64,000 bases of DNA from IMG/VR virus record IMGVR_UViG_3300045988_074608. One strand, given 5' to 3'. Origin of the DNA: a virus. A program made the translations under genes and the position numbers. Under the pieces are notes generated by a model. The model saw nothing but the letters and a program-made list of their open reading frames with translations. It made no database searches and had not been told where the DNA came from. Position 1 is the stretch's first letter. Each line of letters begins with the position of its first letter. Of this stretch, positions 2,560 to 57,920 are shown in pieces.

Positions 2560-5500
2560 TTATTTACATTGTTCATCTATTTCATCTGCTAATGTATCAA
2601 GAGCTTCGTTTGTAGGATAATCTTTTAAAGATTTCTCAATAAATTCCTATCTAGCTTCCAGATTCTATTTCAACTATTCAACAGTAATACCAACAGATTC
2701 TGCTAACTTAGTAAGTACAGACTAATCATTAAATAATTTAAGCTAATTTTCATCTATAATGTGTTTTTCGCCATATAATGCTTTATTTATAGTACTTCCT
2801 ATTTCAGCATTACCGTCCTCCGTGGTCATCTTATACAAGAATTCCCCTAAATTATAACATTCGAATACGTTTGCAAAATCCTAGTTCTAACTATCTTTCT
2901 ACATGATAGCTGGTATTTTTTTCAAAAGATTAATTACGTTAAATACCGCTTTACTTTTAACAACCATTGATTTTTTAGACTTATCATAATATATTACATT
3001 TTTATCTATATCTTCATAAGACAAACCTTCATAATCATGAACAGCTTCTTTAAAATCATTTATTATTTCGGAAATAAACCCTTGCTTGAAATCAGAATAC
3101 TTGATATATTGAGTGGTTTTGTCAGAATCTTCGCCTAATACATCCTCAGTCACAAATGAACTAATATTCTACATTATTATTTTTAGATCTTTTACAGAGA
3201 CTCCTTTTATAGGTTTGCTATTATAGTAATAATACTTTTTATTTACAGATTTCTATTCTGTTTTCTATAATCCAGAATCTGTAAACCTGTTTTTCTTCAG
3301 TGTTCCATCTTCATTATAATAATTTAACATTTTATCACCATTATGGTGAGCATAACAATATACACAAGAAGATGCACAATTACTATTATATTTTAACAAA
3401 TCGGTTTTTCCACCATAACAAGAACACAACTATCTAAATCTATTATTCTCGGTTAGTTTATTAGGTATTTGTGTACCAAGCATTTTATTAATAGCATCTA
3501 CACTTAAACAACCTTCTATACTTATACCATCCATTCTACAAGGTTCTGCGCATGTTGACAAGTCTAAATTATATTTTTTAGCAATATTTAACATCTTTTC
3601 AGCTATACCTTTTATAACATCCATTCTGGCATGAGTAAAATAAAATCCGGAATCATTCTTATCGAAGTATTTAGAATAATCATATCCTAATTCTTCCATA
3701 AATTTAGAAGTGGTTTTATAATAATCTAACACTGAAAATCTTACATGTTTTACACCTAATTCACTAGCTCGTTTCATCAATTTATCCACTTCAGATATTT
3801 TAGTAACGCCTGGTATAATAGGATCTATTCGTAATGTAACATATTCTGGATCTAATCCTTGTTTTATAAAGTCACCTATTCTCTCAATCATGTCTTGCCA
3901 TTTCATAACACCAGGCTCCCATTTAGTATTGCCTAAAGTAGTAACGCTGAAATGAATTATTTTAGGTTTGTTTATCTATAACAATTCTCTCATTGGTAAA
4001 CCATCGTGTTTTGTTATCAAATATAATGCGTCTATATCCTCATATCGAATAGGGTTCTTACTATAATCTAAAAATGTATGATTTCCTTTAGCCCAATCTT
4101 GTATCATTTTTGAGAAGAATACTGGATCAGTGTGTTCTGACGCAACTGCAATTCTTGGTCTAGTATCATCTCCAGTAAACGGTTTTATAGCAAGTATTTC
4201 ATCATTAGTTAATATTGTCTTATCGGAATTCAACGTTTTAACTTGTTCCAAATAAGTTCCGAATCTATCCTCATCATTCGCATCTATACTATCCTGCGTA
4301 TCTATACTGTTATCTGGTTCAATAACATAACCTTCTTTTTCCTATAATCTAGTTCTTATTTTGGTTAATATATTTGCGAATCGTGATTCTCCTGTAGGTT
4401 CACCTTTTTCCATAATTTCATCAAGGATTTCTCCTTTTCGATTAATATGTGTGAATTTTACATTTCCTGTATTAATTAACAATTGTTTAGCTTCTTCATT
4501 TTCTACAAATGACTAATACATGAGAGCAGACAATATACTGTTACTAACTTTTCTCCAGATATTTAACCCTTCGCCAAGATTAACACTAGCACCTTTAGCT
4601 TTTGCTATTTTAGGATCTTGTTCTGTTATTATAGAATTAAATATTCTAATCTTATCATCAGTTGACAATGCAGTAGAATATAAAACCTTAATAGCCTAGA
4701 ATGCATTTTCAACAGTATTCGCGGAATGTTTTACAATAGATTTAATCTTATCAATATCTTTAATATATGATAATTCCTCTCCAGACAATACATTAAATAC
4801 ATCTGTTATATGACGTGTTGCAAAGTTAGACAACATTAGATTATCACCACGTTCATAATGTATATTTATAGAATCTTGTTTCTTATAAAGACCTTCGATG
4901 GCAGTTATAAATGCATTTGGAACTTTATTGTTATTAATCAGATCATCTTTTGTTATAAATCCAGACTGTCGTATTGCGTTTTCAATAGATCCTCTCTGTT
5001 TATTTACATAATCTATTACACTTTGTAATTGTGTATCAAATGTCTATTGAGCAGATTGTACAGTTGGAACAATTTTATTACCCTGCTTATCAAATTTGTC
5101 AAAATACGTCTTATCGTAATCGTCATCTATTTCACATGAATAGAATTGATATGTCTAAGAACCTATTTTCATACGTAAACCTTTTGGATTTACAATTTTA
5201 TATATAGGGTATTCGAGACTAGTTCCATATTGTGATATTGATCCGACTCCAACTAATTTATATAATAAAAATCTATCGTTATCTGCATATGTTGTACCAT
5301 TTCTAAATGTTTTTATAAACGGTGGGAATTGTCCATTTTTATTTTTAGATATAGGTGAAGAATATTTATTATTGTAATATGATAATCCTATTATTGTCCT
5401 AGGTTCTGTTCTTAATGTAACAGTACCATCATATCCTACCTATTTATATGTAAAATTAGATGTTATAAATCTACTATAACCTTTTTCAGTCTTTGTATTA

Positions 5501-8500
5501 GTAGTCGGTATTATATTATTATCTGATGCAAAGTTTAATAACAACTCGTCTATGTTTATGCTATAATCTCTATTGGATTCAAGATTACCTTTATAATAAT
5601 CAGAAGCTTCTTTTATATATTTACAATATCCAAAATCTTTTCTCCACTGTAATGGTACATATTTAAAGAACTTAACAAATCCTTTACTGTCTGCAGAAGA
5701 CATAAATGCATATATTGCCAAATCATTTGCAATACCTCGCATAGCTTCTTGTAGTTTAGGATTCTTATCGTTTGTATAATTAAGCATATCTTTCCAAGCT
5801 TCTATATAATCATTACTTACAGCTGAATCATCTTCTGAAGTATATGTCATAGAAATTATATCATAATGAGGTTTACCTTCTTCTGCAAAATAATGTACAG
5901 AATGTAGTTTTTCGATAAGTGGATTTATTATAGTTCCATTTTGAGTAAACTGTTTTAACTAACCAGACTCATCTGATCGTAACAATCTCTATAACATTGT
6001 TATACGTTTAGCTAACGTACGATTGCCAACAATTAGTTGCTTCCAATACGAATATATCGTATGATTTGTACCGTGTTTTTTGTTATATTTATCAACATAA
6101 TCCTAAAAAGCATAATTAAACGCTTTCTATTTTATGTAACACATCATCGCATTATTAACTGCTGTTCTAGTAGCTTTAGATTTATTATTCAATATACTTA
6201 AAATCTCATCTCGTTGTTGTTCAAATGATTTTTGCATATGAATCATCTAATCTCCCAAAACCATATGTATGAATTCTGTACCATAATAAGTTTTATCGTC
6301 AATATAAGAATCATTTAACATCTATTCAATATTACTATTAAATAATGTACTCTATTTAAGATTATTATATTTCGCTAAATACTACTGCTAATCTTGATAA
6401 TTTATACCTTGTTTCTTAGTATCAATTTTAGTATATTGTACAAGATCTGACAGACCCTGTGCATATTTCTCAAACTCTTTCGAAGCGATGTATATCATTT
6501 GTTGGATTTCAGATACTTTTATATTTTTATCGCGAATCTTAATAGTTTTATCTAAATCTAAACTTGAAACAGAATTTCCAGCTTTCTTATAATAATTTCT
6601 ATCCGTTGCGAGTATTTGTAAAATAGTCTTTTTTACTGTTTTACCATTTTCATTAACTTCTACTCTAAAACCATCATTGCGCATAGGGTCTCCAAATATA
6701 TCTACAATAGTAGACATTACATCATGTGCAAGCTAATCTTTATCAGATAGAGAACCATTTGCATATATTGCAGCAATACTTTTTGTACCAAAAGTCTTAT
6801 TTATATATTTTTTTTCAGCCTCTTCTTTTCTCTATTGTGGAGATAAACCTGGATTATCAACTATCTAACCATCGCATTCATTATAAATCTATGCTAAATC
6901 TCTAATCACAGGATTATTTAAGAAATAAAATGCATGTCTACCAAAACCTAATCTTATTAACAATGAACTTATATTATAAGTAGCTTTATTGATATTCATT
7001 CTCAAAACATAAGGATCTTTAGCAACATCTACGTGACCATTGATAAGTGCTGATATCCAAGATAATATAAATGATCCATCACAGTCAACACTTCTTGCTA
7101 AAGATAAAGCTCCTAAATTACTTAATATTCCACCATCTGATATAAATCCAACATCATATAATTGTGTCAAGATATGGTTATTATTGTTCAAAGCGTAAGG
7201 TCCGATACCAGTTTTACCTGTTGCGAAAGAACCTCTTGTTTCTACCTAAGTACTAAGCATTTCAAATTGATATGGTTCGTATGGTTTTGCAACAACTCCA
7301 CTCTCAAGTTCTTTCAATACATTTTTAACAAGAGATGTATCCTAGTCAATAGATCTTCTTAAAAGATGTGCATATCTTCCACCTTGTAATTCACCATTTT
7401 TATCAAGTGTTCCACAATCCTTTAATAGTGATATATATGTACGTAAAAGATCATTAGTTAACTATTTCTTCTTATCGGAAAGATTTTCAGAAGTTGCTGT
7501 ATAACGGGATTTTCTTCTAATCTGACCTTCTTTATCAATAAAATCAACATCGTGTTTTACAAGTTCGTAGAATAATGTAGACATGTATAATTTATCAATA
7601 TCGAAGTCAGAACCTGTTTGAGCTGTAAATTCTTTAGGTAAGACAATAGTATCTCTAACAATAGGTAATACATCTACAAATCGTAAAGCTCCAATTGAAG
7701 ATGTAGCCTGTGTAGGAATACGATATGACATAGTATTGGCTTCAGCATTATGCCACTCAGTTTCTCCAGTTTTTACACCAGATATTATATCATTATCGAT
7801 CAGCCATTGTTTAGCCTTTTTAAAGTTATTCTACAATCCTTTTGGAATGATATCCATAAAATAGTCTATAGATACTACAGCATCCATTGAACCTTCTTCA
7901 TTGATCATACGTAAAGGTTTTCCACCGTTCAGTTTACTTTCAATATTTTCAGAACTAATAACCTTATACGGACTATCCATTCCAAAAACAGTTCTCTGAT
8001 AAAATGCATTACCTTTAGTACGAATATCGATGACATCAGTTCCTACTTTAGATGACAATATACTTTCAACCCAAGCCATATTTGAAACGCTGTTCAAATC
8101 TACATTAAAACCATCTCCGGCTTCATTTAATTCTAAAGCTTCTAATATATTTTCATCAGCATTTCTATCTCGTAACTACTGTACTAAAAATTGTTGTAGA
8201 TTTTTAAAGTTTACAGTACCGTCCTAGTTTGTAAATTTATTTTTCAGTTCATCCCAACTAAGTTTAGCAATCTCACGCATCGTGGACATTATCTTATCAC
8301 GAACCTCGTTTGCGGACATTTCTTTTACTGTACCATCTGATTGACGTATATTATAAGTATCACCATCACGTAATGTACCCATACAAACCTTTAAAACCTG
8401 TGTACCTGCAGCCATTATTTCATCTACACGTGGATCTGTGTTCAACTGTCTACGAATCCATTTATATTTCTATGTATAAATATGACCTGCGAAAGAAAAT

Positions 8501-11500
8501 TTATTTATATCTTCAGCAGACATGTCTGGGTCAAACCTCTAAGCTCCTTGAGAGCCTGCTTTTACAGCAGACTACATCATACACATATCAACTCCATTTT
8601 TAGGATCGTTCATCTTATCATAAAGATGTTTTAAGAATCCGTATGATATACCTTTGAATATTGGGAACAATGCAAACTTATTATAAAAATGGACAGGTGT
8701 TCCATTTTGCATTCTATAACCAAAAGCAGAATATTTCTAAGTAGATATAAGAGCATTGTGTACAATTTCATAAGCTTTTGCATCTGATAAATAACTATTA
8801 TTTTTACCACGTAATATATCAAAAGCCTCTTTAACATTTTCTGTAAATGCACCGCGTTGTTTCAACAAGTTTTCAGCCATCTTGTCGGTTATGAAAGCAG
8901 TACCATCAGTAACATTAACACCTTCCAAATGTTTAGAATCATCGTATACATAACTATTTGTTTCGGATTGAACTTTCTTATCGATGATTTCCAAAATACC
9001 AGCTTCTTTTAACAACTCTTTCTGTTTTTCAACATCCATGTTGTTTACAATCTTGTATATTTCAGCTTTTTCAGCTTTGGATATATCTCGACCTTCGTAT
9101 TCTTGTTTACTTAATAGTATGTTAACACAAGCTTCTCTATATTCACCTCTTTGGAATACTGTTTTTAAAGAATTTACCATTTCACTGGTAATCTACCAGT
9201 CATTTATTTCCGCAATTCTATATTCACTAGGTATTCCAGGTATATCTTCTCTATTGTTAGATCCAGTAGAACCAACACCTCCATAACGTTTAGTTTCATC
9301 AACACCAAATGTTACAAGCTATCCTTTATCATTGTAATTAGTCTTGAAGAATTGTGGCATTCCTGTTACAAATCTTCTACCCTCTTCCATAGACATTAAC
9401 TGTTTGCACATTGTGTCAAATACATAAGCTACTATAGCCTAACCTTCTATTTCTGCTTCACTCTTTAATGAATTATAACGCCTCTCTGTATTACCTATTC
9501 TAGAATTTCTATATGCGTTGGCAATAAGTGCTATTTTATTAACATCTAAGTAGTTATTTTTGTAGTTGAAATATTTAGCATTTTCAGCAGCACTTGACGT
9601 ATTTGTCTATACTTCTATAATACCAAGATCTACAAGATGTTTTAACTCGTCGTCTAATCTATGTCTCAATATATCAGCCACTATTTTTCGTTTTTCCTCA
9701 ATAGGTCGACTAAAATATTTTTCAACTGCTTTATTATAAGATTCGAGTATTCCGTTAGTTGGTGTACGATGTTTTTTTGCATCATCTGTAGATACATCAT
9801 CTTGAAAATTGAATGATATGAAATTATCACCTTCATAAATACCTGCCAATGATGTAAACCTTGCTCCGTTTTTACTACCTGTATGATAGTTTTTAATCAT
9901 TTGTTCGGCAGGAAGTTTATCTTGCTCGCCATTTGGACCATAACCTAATTCACGAATAGTTTTCTCAACATTCCTACGTTCGCATTCGAAATACTCTATA
10001 AATTGATCTAATACATCGTTTTGTTGATATCCTTTGCTTAAATCCTCTAAGTTAAAGAATATCTAACCTGTAAAATGATTAAACATAGGCAGTTTTCCAA
10101 ATGCTGATATCTAATCATCAGTCATTTGACTACTTACTTTAATATTATAGTCAAATCCTGGTAATTTAAATCCTCGTACAGACATGTATGTAGATTTATC
10201 AGACAATGTTGGCATTATTATAAGACCATCAGATAGTTTCTACATTCTTGATATTTGATCTTCACGTTTTCCCATTTCTGAGAATTTAACGCTATCCGAA
10301 CTATACTTAGATCCAGCATCGGTATCAATAGATATTTCGTCTTTTACTTCTTTATTTAATAACTGCTTAGCTATAACAGATCCTCTTTTCTAACCGTCTT
10401 CATCTTCAAATACAACATACTCGACATCTTTCATATCATCCAAAATAGAACCTTTTCTAATCGAACCATCTGATTCAAAAGAAGTGTTCAAATCATCTAC
10501 AACATCTGATACTGTATTGTTTTGAGCATACATATACATTTTAGTATTTCCAGCACCCAATGTCATCATTTCTGATGTTGCCATTTTATATTCAGATGTT
10601 GCTTCTGCAAGCATTGTTATAAATTGATTTTTAGCATATAAGAACGCTCCTGAATATTTACCGTCTTTATTAGAATCTCTTGTAAATACATTTAAATCAC
10701 CTGATTTTACAGCATTATTTAATTTGTCAAGAACTCCGTCTTTTGATATAAGTGCATATATACTAACACCTCCACTTTTACTACTTGTCATCATTTCACG
10801 TAATGATTCTATATAATCAGTACTGTCTGGATTTAATTTGTGCAGTAAATGATAAAATGCAGGTTTTGTAATCATTACACCTATAGAATTAAATGCGTTA
10901 ATTATATTACTAACAATGAAATCAAAATTAGCAACATCATTTATATCATATATTTTACCATTTATATCAATCTTAGTACTATCTCCAATTAAACCTTTTC
11001 TTATTTGATTCAATGTTGTAGCACAATCTGCAAATGTCGTATAATTTCTGTTTATATTGTCATCTTTATTATATAATCCGGTCAAACCAGACCTTACATA
11101 ATCAAACCATGCGATTGGATATTGTCTAGAACTCTAATTAGTATTTGTCTATCTATATCTATATTCGTATCCTTTTTTATTACCTTCTGATTCATTTATA
11201 AACAAGAAGTTAAAGTTAAGTTTTTGTGATTTAATACTCTAAAACAATAACGTAGTAAGTGTCTAATTGTTCTGATTCTATGCGTAAGTAGCACCTTGTA
11301 ATATATCACCTGCTTTACATATAACTTTTCCGTTTTTACCAACAAGGTCTTTAACAAGACGTACTTCAGTAGGATACATAGCTTGTTCACTTCTATCTTC
11401 TGTATTACTTATATAATACTCTGGTTTTACAATAGCTCCATGATAATATACTTTTGGAAAACCTGCATATTTTTCATATTGTTTTTCTGTAAAACGTAGA

Positions 11501-14500
11501 TAAGATTGATAACGTAATCTATACAAAGATTGGGCTATTCTTTCGAACATGTAATCGTTTTCTCCAAGTCTCCTTAATTGATTATATAAATCAGATACAT
11601 TTTTAACATCGTGTAATTCTGATAACAATCTCTGATGTACTGATTTGAAAGATAAAAATACAGGTCTACCCATAGAGTTTACTGTCTAAGGTATTGTTGC
11701 ACGTTTTGGCTTACCATTTTCTTTGACAACTTTTCCATCTTTATCTAAAACGTACATACTTTTAACTACACCAGATGCTACATCTTCTTGTGTTACATAT
11801 CTAAGATTAGGTATAGTACTCAACATCCATTGTATAGGAGCTGCAACATCATCAGACATAGAATGAGAATAGAATTCGTCTGCGTGTCCTTGAATATCAT
11901 CAGAAACAGCACTTGTTATATCACTATCAAGATCTTCTTTTCTTTGCGCGTCTCTGTCTTTTCTTTTGCGAATACCCATCTATTGCAATTTAGATTCCAA
12001 TAATGGTTGAGCTATCTACCAATTCTAGAATAATTCACGTATAATTAATGCATTATCTCGTGTCAATGCAGGTAATTTACCATCTTGTACAAGTTTATCA
12101 AGTTGTTCTTTTGTAGCAGAACCTCCTGTAATCTAAACATACCATTTAGCAAATGGTGAATCTTTTGCTAAAAGTGTCTATCTATCAAATTTAAGCTTTT
12201 CTATATTATTACCGAGAATATCAATACCTTGTTTTTGAACAATTACTGGTAATAATGTTTCAACAACTTCATTTAATTGTTTCTAAGTATATATGTATTG
12301 TAATTGATGATCTTTACCTTCATTGTCCTATATTGTCATGTTAAGACCTTTTGGGAACAATCTGTTAAAACGTTCCATATTTTCTTTCGAAGCTTTACGA
12401 GAAGAGAATTTACCGTGATCTATTGCTCTAAACGTACATGCCATCTTAAGATTACGTGTTCTTATAAAAGCGTTCAATGTATTATACAACCAAGCAAACA
12501 TTCTTAATATTTTATTTTTAGGTTGCCAGTTGTATTTAGAATATGCATAGAACATATCAGCAAGACCTTCAGCAATCTACTCTTCTGATAAATCTTTATT
12601 TTTACGCTTTTTCTTATACCAATTATAAAGAACGTTTCTTTCTTCTTCACTCATTAACATTTCAACAACGTAGTGAAATGATTCATGATATTGTGCATTA
12701 TTTTCAGCTTCGTACGATAATTTAATAGCGGCACTCATACAACGTCCAACAACATCACCATGCTATGTTTTTTCTATAATATCTTTTACTGGAAGTATTT
12801 TAACACTGTCTCCGCATATTCTACGCACATCTTCTGTCGCTTTTTTCAGCCCTTCTTCATCTTTTATAGGATGTTTAGCTTTTTCACGTTGTACCATATT
12901 CCAACCGTCATCACCAAACATATCATCTTGAGCAGATAACATATCATCAATAGATACATCTTGACCATCTATGTCATCTAATACAGTTTCATCAGATTGA
13001 GGTGTTTCAGGTTGCGTGTTTATCCAATCATCGATTGCAGTTTGCATTTGGGCAGATTGTTCTATAATTGCACTAGGTGTTGTATCATCTACAGAAATAG
13101 CTTCAAAATCAGATGTACTTACCAAAGCATCGGTTATTCCAGAATATTCTGACTAGAACCAATTATTTTTAATCATCCACGCAATACCACTTATGTTATT
13201 TTCAACATCGTCTCTTGTTATTACGAATTCATCTGAATATCTGATAGATTGTACATTTGGGTTTTTATCAAACCATTCTTTAACACCATTAAACAATCTA
13301 CTAACCTTTGAATTTTTAAAGTTATCACGTATTAATAATGTATTCTGCACATTCAAATATCCATTTGTTGACAATTCCTGACGAAGTTTTTGCAAATCCT
13401 GATCATTTTTAAGATTATATATTGTTTTAGTGTTACCTCCATCGTAACTCATATATACTTTATTACGATCAAGATTACCATCTTCATCTTTTACATAATC
13501 AAATTGGAATTTACTGTCTGTTGCGACAGCTCCACCTCCGAATCTTATAAGATAATGTAACAATTTAGAATTATCTATAGGACCTTGTATTTGATTGCCA
13601 TCTTGGTCAATTACATTAGCTTTTGATTGTTTCTTTCCTGATATATTTGTTAGAATATCAACAATAAGATCTGCTGCAGATTGTGACATTTTACCAGGTG
13701 TCAATGCTATTAATGCTGTATGAGGTACAGCACCCTGTTCAGAATCTTCAGCGTAATCCAATGGTTTCTGAATATATACAATACCTGGTCTTGACAAATT
13801 CTCATCATTTACAGCTTCTCGTTGAGATGTTCCAGATCCAACCTTATAATCATCACTATCTAATCGTCTTAAAGTACCCTATGAATCCGATATCAATAAC
13901 ATTGGTTCCCCGTTTTTATAATCTAACAAACCATTTATCTAATCGTCTGTTAAATCCAAACGTTCTTTTACATTGCCAGGTTTATTATTATACTGATATT
14001 TACCATTTGTCCTACTAAGTCCTTTTAATACAACTTTTATTTTTCCAGATTTTATATCATCTTTATTCTTTTGATAAAAATCTATAAGTTTATTTCTAAA
14101 ATCTTGTTCAACTGCGTATATAAAAGATATTTCTGCAGTAGCTTCTTTTGAAAGAATTTGTCCATTATATGATATTTCTTTAAATTTCAAATATGCACCA
14201 CATGTAGCAGCAGTATCTGAAAATTTTGAAGCTTCAAAATCTATTACAAATTGTACATTTTTAATAAAATCTTTTTTAGTAGTCCAATCTTTAAATACTT
14301 GTAATGCTTTCCTTTGTGCAGGAGTTATTTGACTTCTATCTTTAGCAAGTCTGTTATAATGTTTTACATATTTATTATTATATACTCTAGGATTTGGATG
14401 AAATTTACCTTGACCAGGACCATTACCTTTGTTAGTTTTATCTGCTAAATGTTGTTCTACAATTGTTTTAAATCTTGTCAAAATATTTTTTTCTCCTTCT

Positions 14501-17500
14501 ACCCATTCTAAAGCTTGTTTAAGAACAGATAATGTATTATATCGATCGATATTTTGTTCGAATTTAGTTACAGCATCGATGTGTGCATTATATTGTTGAC
14601 TAATTGTTGCATCTTTAACATTCTACATTAATGTATCAAGAGCATCTAATTGATGTTTTAATTGTGCAAAACTTAGTTTTACATTTTCTCTAGCTTCATC
14701 TATTTGCTGTTGTATATCATGTAATTGTTCAACATATGTAGTATGTACATATTTAGGGTCCTATATTGCCAAATCGACCATTTGTATAGGTTGTACGTCA
14801 GTTATAGCAAGCAATTCACTCCAGTTATCACGTGGACTTTTAGTAGTTACGGTAATACCCATTAATTGTAAATTACAAACGCTACTACCAGTACATTCCT
14901 AAATCATTTGTGCATATGCATTTAACTAATTTGTATATACTTCTCTAGCAGTGTGTTGTTGACGTCTTCCGAATGCTGAGGTTTTACCATAATCCTTATC
15001 AAGAGCCTCTCTTTTCTTTTCTGTCTAAATATTTCCTCCAACAGTACCACTAACTATTACATCTTGTAATTCAAATGAGTATTTAGATGTTTTAAAATCT
15101 ATAAGAGTTATATTACCATCTGGCGCTATTGCTAAAAGGTCAGGTTCACCAGCTATTTTAACTTTAGTTCCATCTGGATTAGTTTTTTCATAATATAAAC
15201 AAGTTGGTCTTGTATATAAAACATAACCCAAAGTCTCCATTTTATCCTTGAATTTCTTAAGATCATCTACGAGTTTATCAAAAACTTCTTCAGGAATTCT
15301 TTGATCCACATCTTCATAATTCAAGGTTTTACCTGCTAATATATCACGAGCTATTCCATCTATTATAGAACCAGATATTACAGAAGCACCAGGTAAGAAT
15401 AAATTTGTATCCGTATGTGCAAATAATTTAGCGATAGAATTTATAGTTTCATCGCTCTTTAATATATCGTCAGTTTGAAAATAACCCTCAGGATTTATCT
15501 TACATCTCTCTGCTAATTCTGAATCAGTACCATATAAACGAACAGCTGTATTATAATAATCATCAGCCATTTGATTTATGGCTTTTATGTATTCATTTTT
15601 GTAACCTTCTATAACATTTGTACTATCATTCCTCTTAATAGAATCTAACCATGCATCTCTTAGTTTTTGTAATGTATTGGTATTTTTCTTTATAGCATCT
15701 TCCTATTCTTTTGTATTACGGAACTGAGGTTCCATCATACTATGAAGACGACTATACATTTCAATCCTACCATTTGTTTCAATGAAATAGTTATTTCCTG
15801 TACGCCATTCGTAATGATATTTACTATTAGACGCAGAATATTCATCTAATACTTTTATAGTTTTAGATTGATCTTGTGTTATTACAACATTACCATATTT
15901 TATATTAGTTTCTGGCGCAACATACGGAGTTTTAGGCTGTTGTGCAGGTTGCACAGGTTGTACTATAGGTTTTGCAGGAGTTGGATTTAATAACTTCTTA
16001 TAATACCTTGCATAATTATACTCACTTATTGTTATTTCCTAATCATTTAAGAAATATTTAAACTTACCATTTTTCTATTTTCTTTTTTCTAATTTTGCAC
16101 CGTTATTTAACAAATTGACGATTCGCATTTCTTTAGTACGATAACCATCATCACTTATAGCTCCAAGATTAGTTACTAACTAATCAAATTTCTTTTGATT
16201 ATATTTTCTGCTATTTGCATAATCCGCTAATCTCTAAATAGAACCTTTATAATCAGATGTTAAACCAGGAGCCTTAGCTGCAGCACTTTCATAAGATTCT
16301 CTATCCATCCATTCTTTTTGAAAATCTTCGAAAAGCTTCATACTAGAACTTCTATAATTATCAAGTCTATTACGTTCTTCGTCAGTAAGTTTATCAAGTT
16401 CAGAATCGTTTAATGCTACATAATCATCGTATTGATCTTTTGTCTTTTTCAAACTTTTACCACGATCATCATATTCATTTCTAGAATCAAACCATTCTGC
16501 CTTATCAAACTATTTGTTAGTTTTGATTAATTTATCATTTTCAGAATCATACTCATAAACTCTACGTATACCATCTATGTCATCACGTACAACATATGTC
16601 TTACCATTTCTAGTATACGTATTATTATCATCGGTTATTACTGCAGAATCTAATTTCTGTCTATCTAACTCGTCGTTATAGAAATCATCTTCAACACTCT
16701 GACGTAACAATTCATCTTCTTTTTTATTTTTCAAATATGCTTCAACAGAACTCTTAGCAAATTTTGGATCTTTTACTAATTTGTTAAGCATTTCATTATT
16801 GAATTGTAACTGTATCGAAGCATCAGAAAGATCGCGTTCTGCTGCAACATAATCATCGTCTATATGGAATCCTTTGCTTTCTGCAAACTTTTTCACATCT
16901 TCTTCGGTGTCTAATGCAATGTTATCACCATATACCTCGTGAATACGATCTTTGGTTTTTTGGACGTCATAATCAACTTTAGCTTTTACAGATTTTCCAC
17001 CTTTCAACTCTTTGATTTTTTGCATATCATTCAACAATTGTTGAGTCTACATTTTACCAATAAGTTGATGTATTGTTATAAGATTACTATTATTTGCTTC
17101 ATAAGCACGCTGTAAATCATCAAACATGTTTACAAACTTAGCATCATCTTTATATTTATCTGCAAGTTTATATCTACCGTCTTCCCCTTTTTCTATTTTA
17201 AACTGTAACTAATTTATTCTAGGATCACTTGCTCTATTTGCATCTAAGTAATCTTCAAATGACTATGTTACATTTAAACCGATAAGATTATTTAATTTTT
17301 CTTTATAAAATTGATCAGCTTCTGCAATAGAATTTTGTCTACCTGCTAATACTGCAATGTATGTATCAAAGTTTTTCTACATCACAGAACGTTCATTTGT
17401 CTTCTTTATAGAAAGATTATCTTTTATTTTCTATTTCCATGATTTATTTTCATCTTTCTCTAAAAATCCAGCACTTGTTGCGGTTTTACGTACATCTTCA

Positions 17501-20394
17501 TTTTGTTGTAATATTCCGACTGTATTTACAAGTTTTCTAAGGTTAGCAACATGATCCGACGGTATTCCATAACTAATATTATCTTTATTACGCTCTTTCA
17601 TATCAGATGTGATACCTTCGTACTAATCTAACATCGCTTTAATTTTAGAATAATTACCTTTACGTAATTCTTTAGCAAATATAGACGCTTTCGCAAGATA
17701 ATCTTTATCTGAAATATCGTCAGCTAATAAATTATTTAATATAAGATGATCGAGTTTAAACTGTTGATATGTATTAGCTGCACCTCGTACAGCTATATTA
17801 GGACCACCTTGTATCAAAGCTCCTAAAATACCACCATGCATTTGTTCCCATATATCACGTTCTTGTGCTGTAGCTTGTTCAGGATCTTTAAATAGAAAAC
17901 TAGACCATAATTTAGCACCATCCAATACGGTCATAGGAAGCTGATTTAAAACATTATAATAAGCATTAGACATCTCTTCTACACGCTCATATTGTTGTTG
18001 TTGCTGTAAACCTTCTTCAGCACCTTCGGAATACATACTTGCTCCAGCTCTCCATCCGAAATCTTTAGCAACCTTACCAGCAGTACCTAAATATCTTCTA
18101 TATCGTAATACTCTTTCTGGTATAGCAGTAGCCATATCTATAACATTTGCAGAATGCTGCAATGATTTTTCTGCCATTTTTGCTAAAGCTTTGTCTATTT
18201 TACCTTGTGCAAAATTTCCTACTTTTTGCATCAAGACAGGTATTCCAGATTCTTCTATAAGATCTTTTGTAATACCTCTTACAAAATTAGCAGGTGCATT
18301 TAAAGTTGTTCTAATACCATTTACAGCATTTGTAACAGCTGCATCTCCACCTTCTGATAATAATTGTTGAACTGCCTTTCTAAGCGATGTTTTACTACCA
18401 TCTGCATATTTGCGTAAAGCCATTTTAAACGCTAACCTGTCTCCTTTTGCAGCTAATTTATCAGTTAGAAATCCAACCTTAGAATTTTTCGCAATACCTC
18501 CCATAGGCATACAAGACACAATAGCATCTGTTAAAGAATCAAGAGTATTAACACCCATTCCTTGATAATATTGTTTTGCAGAACCTGCGGTAGCATCTAA
18601 TAAAGTCTGTCTTATTTTAAAATCATTTGGAACATATTTACCGATATAGAAAGCATGTAATATATCATCAACAGTAGCACCTTCTCCAAGCTCTTTTCTA
18701 CCTTCGTTTACAAATTTATCAAATTGATCATTTTCAATAAGAAGTTTTTTAGCTAATACATCTGTAGCATCTGATACGTTTGCAAAGTTCTCATCTGCTC
18801 CAGCAGCCATAGAAGATGCAAAAGAAACAGCTCCAGATGCAAGTGCTATAGAAGCACCTGCAGTTTCAGGTGCTAATATTGAACCGAGTAAAGCTGTAGC
18901 ACCGGCTCCCATTGAAATTAAAGTTTTCTCTGGAGAAGACATTGATGAAGCGAGAAGACTTGGTGCCATCCACATTTTTGCAGGATTATACCATGCTAAT
19001 GAATTAGCAGCAGCTTCTCGTTTTCTATAATAATTCGAAACTTCATATCCTTTTTGATATTTCTCCAAATCTTTTTTATCAATCTCATAATCATTTCGCC
19101 ACAAAGCTTTCATTTGTTCAGCTCTACTATTGAATTGTTTATATATATTATCCAACTATGTACGAGCTTGTTTTGCTGCAGCAACATCTCCTTTCTCAAG
19201 AGCCGCTTTATACTTTGTGATATTTGCACCAAATCCATGTAGTTTTGAACCAACGCCAGTTCCGAAATCCAAATATCCAATATCGTGTAACAAAGACTGT
19301 GCATCAGAAACTAAATCTCCAGCCCACGTATGATTTTCAAAAGATATTAAATCTTTAAATACGTTTTCTTGTTTTTCTTTCTTTTGTTGGAGTTGATTTA
19401 TTTTTTCTTTAAGATTGTCCCAATTAAGACTCTCTTCCTTACTGATACCTTTTCCGCTAACATAACGATTTCTAATATCTTCAAACTATGCCTAAGTATT
19501 TTTAAGTTCAGTTACAGTTTTTTGATATTCATCTAATGCTTCTGGATTTACCATGTTTTGTTGCTACATTAATGTATTCATTTTACCAAGACTTGTAGCC
19601 ATCTAGGTTTCGTTTTTAGAAATACCAAAAACATGATATGCATCTTGCAACAAAGAATTTTTTCTATTTTTATCGATATTATCTGCAATTTTTTTACCAC
19701 TCCATAATAAAAAAGGAGCTGCTATCGGATTCTAAATACTTTGTAATACAGCATTAGCTATAGGTAACATGCTATCATAATAACCTTTTGGAGCTGTATC
19801 ACCATCGTCCTATTTAAAATCCTCTGGATGCATTGTTTGATACCAACGTACTGTTTTATCAATTTCGTAATCCAATGCTTTTGCCTAACTTCTCAATTGA
19901 GCAGCTGCTTTAGGATTAGATTTTTCAATACTTGTAGCTGCGTCATTATAAGAATCTCTATCTTCCATAAGTCTTCGTACTCTACTTCTGGAAGCTCTTT
20001 TATCTAAATTTTTATTTTGTTCCCGTTGTCTATTTTCAGCATCTCTCTGTTCTTTTGTGAACACTTTTCTTCCAGGAAAAGACCATTTATATTTAGATAG
20101 ATTCGGATTTTGTGGTATCAGAGAAGTAAAATCGGTATTATTATTTTGCTGATTGTTATTCTGCCGATTATTATCCTACTAATCATTTGTATCTGATGAC
20201 AATTCTTTATTTTTACGATCAGCATCTCTTTTCAAACGTTCGTTTAATTGTCTCTCAGCTTCTTCATCTTCTCTCTGTTTTCTTAAAATATCCTATCTTT
20301 TTCGCTCTTCTGATTTTCTCAGACGCTCCATATATTTCGCACGTTCGTCATCACGAACTCGGTACGAACCTCTTATTAAGCTATTTATATCCAT
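2560..20394 (-). CDS. Giant virion protein (about 5,944 codons) containing the crAss-type virion RNA polymerase motif plus nuclease-like and DUF1848-like domains; TAG read as sense
   Basis: ATG at 20394 lies 2 nt after the TAA (20397-20399) of the upstream gene, and the nearest upstream in-frame stop is TAA at 20434-20436. All 23 track ORFs from 17623..19155 down to 2899..3153 are in this one frame. My codon-by-codon check of every gap found only TAG (about 95 by hand count) and no TAA or TGA until the tandem TAA TAA at 2557-2562. Confidence 0.75.
3340..4155 (-). other. DUF1848-like (putative Fe-S, TIM-barrel-like) domain inside the giant ORF
   Basis: The translation runs from IAVASEHTDPVFF to LRIDPIIPG to CAEPCRMDGISIEGC to RFR(TAG)LCSCYGGKTDLLKYNSNCASSCVYCYAHHN. 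This matches my recollection of the DUF1848 layout (N-terminal S-x-R/H-T-D-P-x-F-Y/F, C-terminal CxC...C...CxYCYA cysteine cluster). It is a motif-level call only. Confidence 0.45.
7594..7608 (-). other. DxDxD (DFDID) putative catalytic metal-binding motif of the crAss-type virion RNA polymerase
   Basis: Track ORF 7462..7731 reads ...TAQTGSDFDIDKLYMSTLF. The five codons GAC TTC GAT ATT GAT map to 7608..7594. A DxDxD loop in a very large virion protein is the signature described for crAss-like virion RNAPs. Confidence 0.55.
14914..15141 (-). other. PD-(D/E)xK (RecB/Cas4-like) nuclease motif set inside the giant ORF
   Basis: GEPDLLAIAPDGNITLIDFKTSK supplies D...DxK (D codon 15139-15141, K codon 15091-15093). 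It is followed by REVYTN(TAG)LNAYAQMI. If the TAG at 14926-14928 is read as Gln, this gives the family QxxxY motif exactly (Q-L-N-A-Y). Confidence 0.5.
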
Positions 20395-40535: not shown

Positions 40536-41582
40536 TTAAGCTGTAATACCCTCTGCTGTAATATTACCAAGAGCTGTTTCGATTGCTTCAAGGTCGTTTG
40601 AACCAGTTACACCATAAATCTCAACACACTCCTTTGTACGACGAATCTGATCATCAGCAGCGTGATAATGATTTTCAAACATGATTGTAATACCATCGTA
40701 ATTCTTTGTGATATCTGTAACCATATCTGGTTTAATAACTGGCCATGTACCTTCACCACGGTTCAAAATACCCTGGTAACCCATAGCCTGTGCTTCACGA
40801 TCGCGTACAAGTTTAGCATCAGTTGTGCACCACTTACCTGGAATCTTTTTGATTGCAAGGCCTGTAATAGAATACTTGTTCTTAGAAGCAAATGCTGGAG
40901 CCGTAGGATCTGTATAATATGCATTTACACTGAAACGCACCTTATTAGCCCAGTTCAAGCTATCATTTACGTTATCGTCATCATAAGCCATAGCCTTGAG
41001 TGTCACAACACCAGCCGCAGCAGTAGCATAAACACGAGCTCTCTTATACTGAACGTTGATTTGCTTCTTAATAGCCTCTGCAATAGTGTCAGCAGTATCA
41101 CCTGGCTTAGTTATATACTCATAAGACTCCGTCCACTTGCGATAACGAGTAGGCATATCTTTAAATGTAATACGTATAACGATACGACGTTCCCCTTTAG
41201 CAAATTCGCTGATAACTGCAGAATCTACTTTACTAAAATCAATAGTAACGGTATCTTCACTATTATTAAAGTGTGTCCGTTTAACCATTGATATAATATC
41301 ATCACGCTTAATTGTATTTGACCACTTAATAACAGGAACATAAGTAACATCTCCATCCTTTGTACGATGCGCTACATTCTTGCTAGTTATAAATCCAATA
41401 CGGAACTTTTTAGTGTTTGTATTAACCGTATAAAGATCTGACTCTGCAACACCATCCATATTCATCATTATAAACTTACCAGCGTCAGTGCTAGGTGTAT
41501 TCTTATCTGTTGGAGCTGTAGGCTTTGCTGCACATACTCCTGCTCCAGTACCTACAAGTACTGTATTTACATATGTAATCAT
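40536..41582 (-). CDS. Abundant-looking structural protein (348 aa), GC-enriched, no TAG
   Basis: Intact track ORF with ATG start and TAA stop, followed by a terminator-like hairpin. No family recognised; the structural role is inferred from position and codon composition. Confidence 0.65.
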   Translation of the reverse strand: MITYVNTVLVGTGAGVCAAKPTAPTDKNTPSTDAGKFIMMNMDGVAESDLYTVNTNTKKFRIGFITSKNVAHRTKDGDVTYVPVIKWSNTIKRDDIISMVKRTHFNNSEDTVTIDFSKVDSAVISEFAKGERRIVIRITFKDMPTRYRKWTESYEYITKPGDTADTIAEAIKKQINVQYKRARVYATAAAGVVTLKAMAYDDDNVNDSLNWANKVRFSVNAYYTDPTAPAFASKNKYSITGLAIKKIPGKWCTTDAKLVRDREAQAMGYQGILNRGEGTWPVIKPDMVTDITKNYDGITIMFENHYHAADDQIRRTKECVEIYGVTGSNDLEAIETALGNITAEGITA

Positions 41583-41660
41583 AATTTATATATTTAATTT
41601 TTTCTACTCCCTCTATTTATATAATACTAGACCTAACTAGCTGAGGTTTCCACGTTAAAA

Positions 41661-43819: not shown

Positions 43820-44572
43820 TTATTTACTTTCTACTTGGTTTATAATCGAAAGTTTAAGGTCTTGATTTTTCTTTGCATCAAGATAAGCAATAGCATCTTG
43901 TTTAGAATCTGCAAACAACTCACTACCATAATAATAATGAGTTTTATCTTTGCGGATAACACCTTTTGCAATAGCACTCTCAAGCAAGAATTCTGTTTCC
44001 TTTGATTTATTGTTTACCCAAACGTCAAAGAACTTCTTAGGATTCTTATCAACAAGACCAAACAACGTAGATTCAACAAGCTCATTTGATAATGTATCTG
44101 ACTTAAGACCAAACAAACGCAAACATTTACGCATCTGATCCAATGACAGTTTGTCGAATTCTTTGATAGCATCTCTACGCATCTTATTAATCTTGTTCTG
44201 CTCAATAGCCTCTGCCTGCTTATTGATTAAGAGATAATCCTTACTAGCTGCAAGTTTATCCAAAGATGTAGCAACACGCTTATGACCTGTCAAGAACTTA
44301 ATAATCATCTCCTGTCTAGGATATGTATCATCAAGCAACAATGGTCTAGAACCAATCTTTACTACAAAGTTCTCCCAATAAGGACTGCTCTTAGCAAGAG
44401 TTCCTTCCGCAAGACCTAGAACTTTCTCATAATGTTTCTCATCTTCTGGGGTGAGACCCGTATATATCGACCCGGAACGAGTAAGGTAGGGTGCAATATA
44501 GTCAAAACATGACTTATATTTAATTAAACCCGCCCAGGGATTTTTCTTCATTATTTTTAATTCAACTACCAT
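43820..44572 (-). CDS. Head-module protein (250 aa), no TAG
   Basis: Intact track ORF directly downstream of the MCP, with a TAA stop. Confidence 0.65.
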   Translation of the reverse strand: MVVELKIMKKNPWAGLIKYKSCFDYIAPYLTRSGSIYTGLTPEDEKHYEKVLGLAEGTLAKSSPYWENFVVKIGSRPLLLDDTYPRQEMIIKFLTGHKRVATSLDKLAASKDYLLINKQAEAIEQNKINKMRRDAIKEFDKLSLDQMRKCLRLFGLKSDTLSNELVESTLFGLVDKNPKKFFDVWVNNKSKETEFLLESAIAKGVIRKDKTHYYYGSELFADSKQDAIAYLDAKKNQDLKLSIINQVESK

Positions 44573-44593
44573 AATTTAAAATTAGTATGTTGT

Positions 44594-44650: not shown

Positions 44651-46450
44651 TTAGGCTGCTACGTTATAAGCACCTTTATTCGTAATGTCTGTATCCTCAG
44701 CATCACAGTACAGAATACCACAAGACAGCGGATTACGAAGCATAATACCCTCCTCACCGAGGAAGTGAACCTGGTAACCATCACGGCTGTTAGAACGTAC
44801 TGTATTAATACTATTGCTATATCCAGCTGGAGTTACAGAACCTGCTGTACACCACTGTACAAACTCACGACCCTTACGACAAACCTTAACAACGTTTGCC
44901 TGACCATCACGCTGACCAAGATCAACAAACAAGAATGTGTATGACATCAATGGTTTACCTGTAACCGGATGCAACTGACGGAACATTTCCATATTATCAA
45001 ACAGAGCACAACGCTTAACTGTAAGCTCAATACCGTTAGTCATCTTATATGTAGTAAACTGACCACCGAGTGTCAACTCCTGACCAGAACCAGTGATAAA
45101 CTTAGTATCAGTAAGCTGGAATCCAGCTGCCTTCTCACGAAGTACACGGTCAAATTCTCTAATCATTTATGTTTAGTTCATATCGTTAATACAAACCGGT
45201 TTTTATTGACCAAATAAAAACCCTCATATTTTCATATGAGATCAGACTATATCTTCAACCTATAAAAAGGTTGTCCACCATTTCGATTTCACTTGAAACC
45301 TACTCCTTTCGGATAGTCGTTGAACGTTCTTAACTAAATAAGTTAAGCTTCGCTGCTGATTGCCTCCAACTTAATGGTAAGGTTTTCCAGCAATTAGATG
45401 GATTTTCAAGTAACATTACTGCTACAGGGAGCTATGTTGTTAACCCATTTCTCCTGTCAAAGCGATAAACTTACGCTCCTGTGTACCGAGAATATTATAA
45501 CACAGATCGAACAGATAATCCTCAAGCAGCTCAGCTGTCAAATGTGTATAATAACGTACATTAGCAGGACTAATCTGCTCAAACAAACCTGCAGAGATTG
45601 GCACAGGTCTTCCATTTTTACCTCTAAGAGCATATGTACCATCAGCATTACGGTTAGAACGAGAGAACAGAAGGAACTTCTCCTCACGACGTTTCCACTC
45701 ACGAAGAGCCAACCAATACTGATAATCAGACCACAAATAAGAAGTCTTACCTGTCTCAGGATCCTTCAATGCGATAGCAAGTACTGTAGAATAAGCATCA
45801 CCTGTAATATCGTAAGAAAGACGAAGAGTTGTAAGGTTATTACGCATCTTAAATGGAGTCTGATAGCTGATGATATCTGCCTCATCACTGTACTCCTCGT
45901 ATGCAGAACCAATACGGCTTACCTGACGACCAGGAAGAAGGAACTCACCAGGAATATATGCTCCTGCGAAACCATCTGCTACATAGCATTCATATACCCA
46001 TGTAGAACCATCCTGATAAGGTACACCATTTACACGTACCTGATAGTTTACATTATCGAAAGCAAGTACAGCACCAGGACCGAAAGCTTTTTCCTCAAGT
46101 CCAATGTAGATAGGAGCTCCATTCAAACCTGGAGTAACAGTATTCGCATTGTTAGAAGTAATCTCTGCACCATCAGCCTTAGCCCAACGAATATTTACAG
46201 CCTTCTCCTGGTCAACCATTACTGACCACTCGTACTCACGATTCTCAATAGTCATAGTCTTACCGAGACCACCAGTAATCATGTCGATAGCAGTAGATAC
46301 ACCATCATCCTTAGTACCAAATACCAAAGAAAGAAGACCACTAATCTCATGAGGTCTTGTAAGAAGTGCGTTTGAAATCATGTTCTCATCAACCAAATCA
46401 GAGAATTTACGACCTCTGTAAAGCTGAAGATTATTTAAAAGTGTATTCAT
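44651..46450 (-). CDS. Major capsid protein, two exons (46450..45443 and 45163..44651) joined across a group I intron; 506 aa, no TAG
   Basis: Track ORFs 45440..46450 and 44651..45166 are in the same frame and are separated by 279 nt of ribozyme-like sequence. The predicted junction is ...LTGEMG/IREFDRV... It is a GC-enriched gene placed after the scaffold-like gene, as in crAss-like head modules. Confidence 0.75.
45164..45442 (-). mobile_element. Group I intron (IA2, T4 td-like), ORF-less, 279 nt
   Basis: The canonical P, Q, R and S elements occur in order on the minus strand: AATTGCTGGAAAACC, CAATCAGCAGC, GTTCAACGACTATCC, GAAGATATAGTCTGATC. The 5' exon ends in GGU, followed by UAA. The intron ends in ...AACAUAAAUG. 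Several stretches (AACGACUAUCC...GGAGUAGG...CAAGUGA...UCGAAA...GACAAC...AGAUAUAGUCUG) match my recollection of the T4 td intron. Confidence 0.85.
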
Positions 46451-46478
46451 AAATTATTTATTATTTGATTAATTGTTA

Positions 46479-53270: not shown

Positions 53271-56200
53271 TTAAAAATTAAATATTGACGAATCTTCTTC
53301 CTAAGGACCGTCGTCCCACCATTGACTACTAAACAATGGTTTTTCAAAGAGTTCGACTTGTTTATTCTGTTCTTTAGCACTAGATACTTTTACTTGATAT
53401 AATTCTTCTCTATAAATCATAACCATGCATAGTGCTATAACACGGTCTACATTACGAACCTAATCATCCATTATTAATTCTTCTATTAAAGGTTCGCTAA
53501 ATATTCTTTCTATATTTGGATGTCCTGGTTCATATTCTTCCATCATCCATTCTAGTATTAAACCTTCGCCATATGCTCTTATTTGTTTTGTCATATGACA
53601 ACCTTTTCTACGCTATACTGTAGAGTTTTTAAACAATTCACTAATTACTTTATCAGGCTAATCAGCTAATAAGTAATCGCAATGTTTATTTGTAAAATAT
53701 GGGTATATACCTTTACGTTCGTTCTCAAATAATAACCTAGCGTTATAAAATAATAACAACTTACGAACGTTTTCATAATACTCTTCTGCTGTATCTGGTC
53801 TACCAGAATATTCGGCTACTATTACATCTGTCCAAGCTTCTCCTGCTTGTACACGTTTAAATATAAATGTAGACCCTAATGAATTTGTAAAAGATTCATC
53901 ATGGTCATAAGGGTCACATCCTCCTATATATAATCCAAACGGAGGATCCTTTACTGGGTACTCCCATATAACAACTGATCCTGCAGGTTTCTAATCTTTC
54001 TTTAGTGGATAATTAGTAATATCTCCAGTTTTCTTTTCTATTGCTATAACTCCACCGTCACCATCCCATTGCAAATCAACTATGTGTTTCATACTCTATA
54101 ATTTTTTATTAGTACGAATTCTTGTAAGTTGATCCATTAATAGTTTGCGCGGAAATATGTTTTTACCAAGCTCTAATATAGCTTCTTGTGGTTTTATCGG
54201 ACGTTCTGATATAAATCTATCTATGGATTGCTAACTAGCACCACCATCTTTAATAATGTTACGTTGTTTTATAAGTTCCTCAATTGTTTTTTCACGAAGA
54301 CTGTTTCCATCTTCATCCATATAGATATATTTACCATCATCGTCAAACGATTCAAGATTACTCCATGCAGGTACGAAAAAACCACATTCTGTTTGTTCTG
54401 CATTATCATCCCATATATTTGGAAATGATAGAACATTATAAGCTTTTGGTTTATAAAATAATGCTTTCAAACCATCGAACGACGCACCTTCTGTTCCGCC
54501 TGTGTTATGTGTAACAATACCGTTGCATATATAGTTATGTTGTTCGTCTGCTGTAAGATTATATATATCTTGTTCACCAATATCTTCAATATTTACAATT
54601 TTTTCAGCATGTACCCCAAGTACGTATTTATGATATTGAGCAACATGTTCTTGTGTGTATAACATCATCAAATCTAATGCTGATTGTTTATATGTAACAG
54701 CACACGATATACATTTTGCGAAATTTCCAATACTTGTTATATCATTAATTGTCAATCTCCAGTGTCCTGGTCCATCTTTTATAACTTTACCATTAGAAAC
54801 GTGCTTTCGATATTTAGTTTTAATAAAGCGTATGCTACAATGAACACCGAAATGTATCAACACTTCCTCAATCTATCGTAATAATGGTTCCTAACACTAT
54901 GTTAATGTTATACGAGGTTTTCCGGATTTATCAATTTGTATATATCCGTCGGTGTCAAACAAACCACCTATTAATTCCGCTAAAGATTCTTGATCATATT
55001 GATGTATATTTACTGGTAATCGTTTCTTATCTTTTACCTGACCATAAATACCGAGTTCTCGTAATTTTGGACAAATTCCTTTTATGCGAGTTTCTTTATA
55101 AATTTTACCATCTTTAGTAATACGAACTGGTCTATCTAACGAAGTATTAAAATGTGTTTCTATGTATTCATTTATTTCGTTATCACAATTTGACAACCTT
55201 GGCGTTTTATCAAAACCATAACTACCATCGCCAATTAACCAACCAACAACTCTAGGTTCCCACATTTTTTTAGTTCCAAAGAACGGAATGTTGTCGATAA
55301 CGCCGACCTATTCACCAATTTTACATTTCGAAGCTTCATGCCACTTCCATTGTTTCATTGTTTGATTTTCTTTACGTTTTCCAGGAACTCTTTTTGTCAA
55401 ACCGGCATGTGACCATAAAATCGGGTGGTCCGTACTACATTCTAATATTCTTCCAGTGTTTGTGGTTATTCTAACACATGGTTTTTTAGCCGGTGGATTG
55501 AAATGTGATATATGTTGCTAAACAGCCTAATAAGTATCCCAACCTAAAATACCATCCTCTTTATGTAAATCTTCAATATTAACACAATTTCCAGAAGAAG
55601 TCCATACTTTTGTACCTTTACATACACATCCAAAGGATATCATCAATCCAAATGCAACACCATCATCCGTTTCTACAGCAGGTTGTTCAACACGCCAAGC
55701 ATCTAATAAACTTGGGAATTTACCACTTTCTTCCCACAATACTAATCTACCACGAGTACCACGAATACGTTCAGGATCGTTTTTCAATGTAATACCTGTA
55801 ATACTTGATAGATAACCCTATTCTGTCTATTTACCAAATTCGTCAGTAACTTTGTAACCAGATACTCGTTCCATTCTTGTAGATGTCAAACGTTGTTTTG
55901 CCCATGCTGTATTCTTATCTATAAAATCCATGATCTGCCATGCTTTTGTAAGCAATCCATCTCCGATTAAGAATTTTTGTTCTGATGCAACTGCAAAATT
56001 TTTAGAACCTGGTATGAGTTCGTAATTACGAACTAACATTGAAGCACCTTTAAAGCTATATCCACGTTGTCTACATTTTAACACTGCCATGTGTTTACCG
56101 ACTGTTTCTGCTTCTTCTACAGCATTAAAATAATAATAATCATAATCCCAAAATTTAGGGAAGTCAAATATACGCTCTCTTCTTTTTCTTGTATCACCAT

Positions 56201-56453: not shown

Positions 56454-56650
56454 TACAAATCCAATTTATTTTCGTTGGAAATTATTATTCTGTCTCCGTC
56501 ATCATTTGTAAACAAATAATGATACATTTCGTCATGCAATACAACATTTTCTTCTCCCACTTTTGTTATATTTCCAACTGTTTTCCAATCTGCAGAAAGT
56601 GACAATTCTTTATATTTATTGTCATTTTTTCCTTTTATACTTACATTCAT
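56453..56650 (-). CDS. Small protein upstream of TerL (65 aa)
   Basis: Intact track ORF whose TAA overlaps the TerL ATG. Confidence 0.5.
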   Translation of the reverse strand: MNVSIKGKNDNKYKELSLSADWKTVGNITKVGEENVVLHDEMYHYLFTNDDGDRIIISNENKLDL

Positions 56651-57780: not shown

Positions 57781-57920
57781 ATATGCTTTTTTTATTATTT
57801 TTAATAGCGCAGTATTTACGAATCGAACGTAAATCTCTGTATTCATTCCATACAGCGAAATTCCATTATTCCAATACCGCTGGTAGCCCCACTAGGATTC
57901 GAACCCAGACTAAAAGGGTT

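Follow-up and report, generated by a model that had tools for sequence, protein, structure and literature searches.

Does a TAG codon that stands where a viral nuclease carries the glutamine of a catalytic motif end the protein or supply that residue, and what could such a nuclease do as part of a virion protein? These questions are raised by IMG/VR virus record IMGVR_UViG_3300045988_074608, of which a stretch of 64,000 nucleotides (hereafter the window) was analyzed. When TAG is read through, its minus strand carries a giant open reading frame (ORF) composed of a part similar to gp47 of the crAss-like phage PhiCrAss001 (with a nuclease domain and an HExxH motif), a gp50-like RNA polymerase (RNAP), and NADAR and DUF1848 modules. 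Sequence comparison and a structural model of a homologue point to the nuclease region as an intact, metal-dependent DNA nuclease of the RecB/AddA branch, embedded in a crAss-like giant virion protein in which TAG is read as Gln; we assign this reading a probability of roughly 0.85.

A sequence-only reading of the window had already pointed to a PD-(D/E)xK nuclease module with TAG at the conserved Gln. Both peptides that it quoted, GEPDLLAIAPDGNITLIDFKTSK and VYTN-TAG-LNAY, are present, and the distance of about 55 residues that it gave between the DxK core and the TAG codon is exactly that separating K1781 from TAG1836. The peptides are real, but they are encoded on the minus strand, so the gene orientation had to be corrected. 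The span originally proposed (14900-15330) encloses the catalytic core, while the full domain is longer (Table 1).

Motifs and fold of the nuclease domain

Conservation was counted in an alignment of 84 homologues (79 for the motif IV columns) and in a 26-sequence full-domain alignment (A1; mean identity 31%) from which the window sequence was left out. Columns of A1 occupied by R, G, D, D, K, T, Q and Y are invariant, its N-terminal motif is YxRVHS (R1562 and H1564 in the window), and the first core helix follows the pattern G-x3-D-x3-R (G1688, D1692 and R1696). Both the Gln and the Tyr of motif IV belong to the invariant residues of A1; among the 79 homologues, Gln occupies the TAG column in 75 and Tyr the Y1840 column in the same number, so that reading TAG1836 as Gln restores the QxxxY motif, as had been proposed.

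The roles of His956 (a metal ligand), Asp1067, Asp1080 and Lys1082 of Escherichia coli RecB are established. By its sequence, H1564 of the window, conserved in nearly all members of the family and placed beside an invariant Arg, resembles the His956 of RecB (motif FLHS). The active site of the window domain, composed of H1564, D1765, D1779, K1781, Q1836 and Y1840, is predicted from these alignments to be intact and under strong purifying selection. In two other giant proteins, P0039 and P0060, the QxxxY motif is replaced (by SSRVMSVQ and YSQRMSLK, respectively), and P0039 also has DxR for DxK. These substitutions suggest that P0039 and P0060 represent lineages in which the domain is nuclease-dead.

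Assignment of the fold was based on profile searches and structure prediction, and the Pfam family PDDEXK_1 (PF12705), PHROG 298, the family profile, and the AlphaFold2 (AF2) model with its Foldseek matches all point to PD-(D/E)xK. The profile built from A1 matched the window domain with 230 bits when TAG codons were written as X and 240 bits when they were written as Q, well outside what chance would give, and aligned the TAG with the invariant Q. PDDEXK_1 was recognized in 22 of the 26 family members (best E-value 7.1e-9; 22.9 bits for the closest homologue), and PHROG 298, “exonuclease”, matched a 513-amino acid (aa) piece of the window protein (7.9e-10). When 1.84 billion representative proteins were scanned in full with HMMER, a TAG-free piece of 225 aa (window positions 15028-15702, minus strand) serving as the query, 81 relatives were retrieved, mostly of 2,000-5,800 residues. 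The length of the query affected the outcome of such searches: when the giant protein was cut into slices of 1,200 aa, Pfam and PHROGs missed the nuclease and yielded only the C-terminal DUF1848, NADAR and phrog_1017, while the nuclease became visible with a piece of ~500 aa. The Q-substituted domain had no match in a word-indexed protein search, and a phmmer search of the domain against PDB sequences returned only noise. With the family profile, one marginal match was obtained among PDB sequences, the Cas4-family ACE1 structure 9iab (E=0.033).

The closest homologue, P0001, was modelled with AF2 using A1 as the alignment (pLDDT 83.8, pTM 0.84); a single-sequence model of another relative, P0004, was unusable (pLDDT 33). 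The P0001 model has the order alpha-beta-beta-beta-alpha-beta (helix 145-162; strands 210-217, 223-231 and 242-250; helix 291-310; strand 314-329), interrupted by large helical insertions. Strands 2-3 of the model bear both Asp residues and the Lys, and the next helix (291-310) bears the Q/Y pair. In a Foldseek search of the PDB, the nuclease domains of AddA and AddB ranked first (3u44 and 4cej; probability 1.0), followed by Cas4 SSO0001, AdnAB, the Cas4-family ACE1, human EXO5 and RecB. Among viral models, the best matches were “structural proteins” of crAss-like phages and PD-(D/E)XK proteins of other crAss-like phages.

The RecB/AddA/AdnA nuclease domains (PF12705) have the fold of the window domain and four motifs that run in an identical order (His, in the window domain by resemblance, then Asp, DxK and QxxxY; in E. 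coli RecB they read FLHS, GFIDL, LLDYK and LQYQLY), and they are its best structural matches. Unlike them, the window domain has no attached helicase, is embedded in a virion protein, and carries a helical insertion of ~100 residues that separates motif I from the first core helix; its K-to-Q spacing is 55 residues, compared with 27 in RecB. The iron-sulfur nucleases of the Cas4/AddB/EXO5 type also share the fold and QxxxY, but their four conserved Cys residues are missing from the window family, since no column of the 26-sequence alignment contains Cys in at least 5 sequences. This indicates that a 4Fe-4S cluster is absent and that the domain is of the RecB/AddA and not the Cas4/AddB type, and a Cas4-like Fe-S nuclease was accordingly ruled out.

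Table 1. Features of the window discussed in the text (conservation is given for the family or homologue alignments; residues are numbered along the giant ORF)
Feature	Nucleotide positions	Strand	Residues (aa)	Remarks
Giant ORF, 5,957 codons	2560..20433	minus		TAG read through; 96 in-frame TAG, no TAA/TGA before terminal TAA
RecB-family PD-(D/E)xK nuclease domain	14779..15816	minus	~1540-1885	
GEPDLLAIAPDGNITLIDFKTSK	15150-15082	minus	1762-1784	peptide bearing the D...DxK core
Motif I, R1562-L-H1564 in YSRLHS	15742..15750	minus	1562-1564	R invariant, H 25/26 in the family
First core helix, GSIIDGIAR	15346..15372	minus		G1688 invariant; D1692 and R1696 each 25/26
Motif II Asp, D1765 in AGEPDLL	15139..15141	minus	1765	84/84 homologues
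Motif III, D1779-F-K1781 in LIDFKTS	15091..15099	minus	1779-1781	D 84/84, K 83/84
Motif IV (QxxxY), TAG1836-L-N-A-Y1840	14914..14928	minus	1836-1840	TAG codon at 14926-14928
VYTN-TAG-LNAY	14940-14914	minus	1832-1840	surrounds motif IV
EVYTNQLNAYAQMIQECTGSSVCNLQLMGITVTTK				predicted tryptic peptide with two TAG positions
HESFH, zincin-like HExxH	12673..12687	minus	2583-2587	aligns with HEAFH 2157 of PhiCrAss001 gp47
DFDID, catalytic Asp triad of crAss-type virion RNAP	7594..7608	minus	4276-4280	match to gp50; 10.1101/2020.03.07.982082
NADAR-like region and DUF1848	3349-4737	minus	5233-5695	C-terminus of giant ORF
TAG codons on conserved Gln columns	first bases 8738, 8471, 7247, 6389	minus	3899, 3988, 4396, 4682	
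Upstream ORF, 1,714 codons	24259..29403	minus		homologous to PhiCrAss001 gp44 (tail stabilisation/muzzle protein)

Decoding of TAG in the giant gene

The giant ORF has its first ATG at 20392-20394 and its terminal TAA at 2560-2562. Under the standard code this region splits into ORFs of ~200-500 codons, and read-through of TGA, which was also tried, did not join the frame. All in-frame stops within the nuclease stretch (codons 1803, 1836 and 1845) are TAG, and over the whole ORF homology runs on past every TAG. Existing gene calls of the source ENA contig (k115_191848, 96.4 kb; source sample ERZ27229359) already read TAG through.

Relatives that use the standard code provide a direct view of the codon at the motif IV position. 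This codon is CAG in cr85_1 and bajarodcaudo virus 1 and CAA in cr128_1, and in cr85_1 TAG serves as the true stop of the homologous gene. Among 80 IMG/VR loci, CAA or CAG was found in 73 and TAG in one, the TAG-recoded L011; the other six escaped the regular expression used, but have Q by eye. All 53 IMG/VR loci without an in-frame TAG carry CAA or CAG. A residue other than Gln in standard-code relatives, named by the sequence-only reading as grounds for abandoning its proposal, was looked for in this way, and Gln codons were found in the three named phages and the 53 loci. Within a group of loci similar to cr124_1, two adjacent codons are TAG-TAG (L011), CAG-TAG or CAG-CAG, which differ from one another by single C/T changes.

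The decoding of TAG was also examined over the giant gene as a whole. The residues that face window TAG codons in homologues have a profile similar to that of the residues facing CAA/CAG codons (Gln 16% and 19%, respectively, against a background of 4.7%). Maximum-likelihood decoding over all TAG sites favoured Gln by 201 lnL units above Glu, the next best amino acid, a difference computed from aligned pairs that are non-independent. At 13 columns with at least 70% Gln in homologues, the window has TAG in five cases, CAA in three, CAG in four and AAT (Asn) in one. TAG makes up 96 of the 320 Gln-type codons of the giant ORF. Decoding of TAG as Gln in this gene block means that codon 1836 supplies the Gln of QxxxY.

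Further TAG codons lie on conserved Gln columns in the RNAP part, namely at aa 3899 (Gln in 16/19 homologues), 3988 (14/18), 4396 (13/13) and 4682 (13/13). By this comparison, the nuclease TAG is the best supported of several such sites, but it is not unique. The claim that it is one of the few positions at which the recoded residue can be argued from sequence needs correction: Gln can indeed be read at this site, but sites of this kind are not especially rare, as these four codons show, and the bulk statistics of the 96 TAGs lead to Gln independently. A TAG at a near-invariant Gln of a catalytic motif offers a confirmation of Gln decoding obtained from sequence alone, and could serve as an internal control in the annotation of recoded (code 15) phage genomes. 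With 95% read-through per codon, 96 TAGs would leave less than 1% of the product complete, so that synthesis of the full-length protein demands highly efficient decoding.

Probable virion location and possible roles of the nuclease

All of the nuclease motifs are present in gp47 of PhiCrAss001 (AXQ62690.1), as YKRVHS (1627), AGEVDIL (1782), DVKTS (1800) and QLSAY (1840), and gp47 has orthologues in the Steigviridae phages cr85_1 (QOR59483.1) and cr128_1 (QOR59701.1). BLASTP similarity between the window protein and gp47 extends over the nuclease (E=1.5e-10) and the HExxH region (5e-5). In both proteins the nuclease is situated ~1,600-1,850 residues from the start, gp44-46 neighbours lie upstream, and HExxH follows the nuclease, ~750 residues downstream in the window protein and ~320 in gp47. 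In contrast, gp47 is ~22% identical to the window protein and comes from a gene of its own (2,341 aa), with no RNAP fusion and with gp49/gp50 on the opposite strand. Also, gp47 and its Steigviridae orthologues use the standard code, with CAA/CAG at the motif Gln where the window has TAG.

Mass spectrometry of PhiCrAss001 virions has detected gp47, gp49 and gp50, which were placed in the cargo zone of the capsid, with an estimate of ~6 copies of each cargo protein per virion (PMC10172136). A nuclease is not mentioned in that report. The presence of the domain in gp47 lends support, through homology, to the earlier suggestion that a nuclease activity travels with the virion protein. Yutin et al. 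(2021) reported a PDDEXK domain in a large transcription-block protein of “some” crAss-like phages, as well as 243 crAss-like phages in which TAG is reassigned to glutamine, for the most part in late genes (PMC7886860), and a 2023 review calls the function of the nuclease domain unclear (PMC10136315). Since both the domain and the reassignment had been reported, the window domain is an instance of a described feature, and the sequence-only interpretation is right but not new. Relative to the family-level description in the accessible text of Yutin et al., what is added here is the residue-level analysis, the coincidence of TAG with QxxxY, and the codon census.

Several observations weigh against the window domain being an active nuclease of a virion protein with TAG read as Gln. 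The match of PDDEXK_1 to the 513-aa window piece (E=4.3e-4, 20.7 bits) is below the 22-bit cutoff; the modelled fold is that of P0001, whose identity to the window in the TAG-free piece is 49%; large insertions keep the Foldseek TM-scores at the low values of 0.2-0.3; and an hhalign comparison with E. coli RecB alone, in which D1067 and D1080-x-K1082 were aligned to motifs II and III, is not significant (E=0.23). Location in the virion is deduced from homology to gp47 at the low identity given above. Finally, a suppressor tRNA(CUA) was looked for, and not found, in the window and the 8 kb past its right end (72 kb of the 96.4-kb contig); some recoded crAss-like phages have been reported without a suppressor tRNA (PMC10136315). 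This last result, together with the breaking of the region in standard-code ORF calls, could be taken to mean that TAG1836 is a true stop in a fragmented gene or pseudogene, or that it encodes another amino acid. Such a reading is scarcely credible and was rejected, given the 96 TAG codons and the absence of both TAA and TGA over 17.9 kb, the homology that crosses each of them, the likelihood advantage of Gln, and the alternation of CAG and TAG at the same codon in related loci; moreover, metaproteomics confirmed TAG-to-Gln decoding in a Suoliviridae crAss-like phage (reviewed in PMC10136315). It is also very unlikely that the domain is a catalytically inert relic, which the cargo protein retains solely for structure or DNA binding. 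The large helical insertions would suit such a relic, and P0039 and P0060, which lack the Lys or QxxxY, indicate that loss is tolerated in some lineages, but catalytic residues that are invariant or nearly so over 84 sequences of 20-30% overall identity are expected only under selection for catalysis.

If the domain is indeed an active nuclease, its substrate has to be considered. By analogy with the PhiCrAss001 cargo proteins, the giant protein would be carried inside the capsid and, together with the polymerase, be ejected into the host with or ahead of the DNA, and we infer that DNA ends are the target of the nuclease, at the very onset of infection. One possibility, which we tentatively and slightly favour, is that the nuclease-bearing giant protein, fused to the virion RNAP, enters the host from the capsid and resects the entering linear phage genome from its end in the 5′-to-3′ direction, which would expose the single-stranded template strand of inward-pointing early genes to the polymerase, or terminal repeats for annealing. 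This role is preferred because linkage of the nuclease protein to the RNAP block holds across the order, with a fusion to the RNAP here, and because the virion RNAP of phi14:2 is efficient in vitro on single-stranded but does not transcribe double-stranded DNA (10.1101/2020.03.07.982082). About equally likely is an attack on host DNA (the chromosome, plasmids, or defence and repair intermediates), leading to immediate host shutoff or counter-defence with no phage expression needed. The nuclease identity and the evidence for cargo delivery support both roles alike, while the C-terminal NADAR-like and DUF1848 modules suggest several accessory enzymes beyond transcription alone, and the patchy distribution of the domain, present in only “some” crAss-like phages (PMC7886860), fits an accessory function in host interaction. 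However, helicase-less nucleases of the RecB family need DNA ends, of which an intact circular chromosome has few, the estimate of ~6 copies per virion is low for such a task, and both the RNAP fusion and the conserved linkage to the RNAP block point to a function on the phage genome. Resection of the phage genome is in turn disfavoured by the patchy occurrence of the domain, by the other PDDEXK nucleases that crAss-like phages encode, and by the loss of K or QxxxY in a few homologues (P0039 and P0060). For the same reasons the nuclease is unlikely to be indispensable for transcription by the virion polymerase. In a less probable reading, the packaged nuclease, covalently joined to the polymerase in this lineage, is the missing factor that lets crAss-type virion RNAP start on a double-stranded genome. 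Were it that factor, the 5′-ending strand would be resected from the end of the entering genome, and the 3′-ending strand, left single-stranded, would serve as the template of inward-pointing early genes and could later anneal at the terminal repeats. Whichever substrate is used, crAss-like phages would deliver an apparently active (predicted) RecB-type nuclease with their RNAP, a situation that is tractable in cultured PhiCrAss001 (gp47).

Other modules and the surrounding genes

The HESFH sequence downstream of the nuclease may, by its similarity to zincins, represent a metallopeptidase module, and it could bear on the processing of the giant protein. The RNAP was identified by its DFDID motif and by tblastn matches to Crassvirales genomes: the 628 aa around the motif are 30-40% identical to the RNAP regions of these genomes, the best matches being Suoliviridae such as cr124_1. 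A comparison of the RNAP region with PDB sequences gave no match. In several records, the features underlying the RNAP match are named, for example, “DNA helicase” or “nuclear pore complex protein-like”, evidently unrelated designations. The public annotation of the recoded RefSeq genome cr124_1 (locus L003, NC_055899.1) misses the giant gene, and the homologous nuclease region (7400-9200), which contains 17 in-frame TAG codons, is unannotated.

At the C-terminus, DUF1848 was detected with E=4e-24, with a CASSCVYC motif at aa 5686, and PHROG 1017 matches the same region. The NADAR match (E=1.4e-5, 25.9 bits) is under the 35.1-bit cutoff. These modules would be enzyme-like accessories on a presumably ejected protein. 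Two ORFs separate the giant gene from the upstream ORF similar to gp44, and this match indicates that the gene order gp44-45-46-47 is kept.

Neighbouring minus-strand ORFs, from position 1 to ~57 kb, mostly contain 8-41 TAG per 1000 codons, while four ORFs of this strand are TAG-free (40536-41585, 43820-44575, 45440-46453 and 57975-58895). Plus-strand genes from ~59 kb onward also have no TAG, and recoding is thus uneven over the window. This unevenness fits the reported confinement of recoding to late genes. A TAG-dense structural/virion block, some TAG-free ORFs and the assignment of Gln by alignment are likewise known for crAss-like and Lak phages with genetic code 15. A difference from code 15 phages is that no tRNA(CUA) was seen in the 72 kb examined; a tRNA-Gln(UUG) gene is located at 15793-15864 of locus L086, ~3 kb past the right end of the window. 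A tRNA-Ile(AAU) gene at 57807-57880 (minus strand) adjoins a dUTPase gene. For the minus-strand ORF at 53271-56465 (1,064 codons, 17 of them TAG), the contig gene calls list Pfam matches to Intein_splicing and LAGLIDADG_3, so the recoded block also includes an intein-containing gene.

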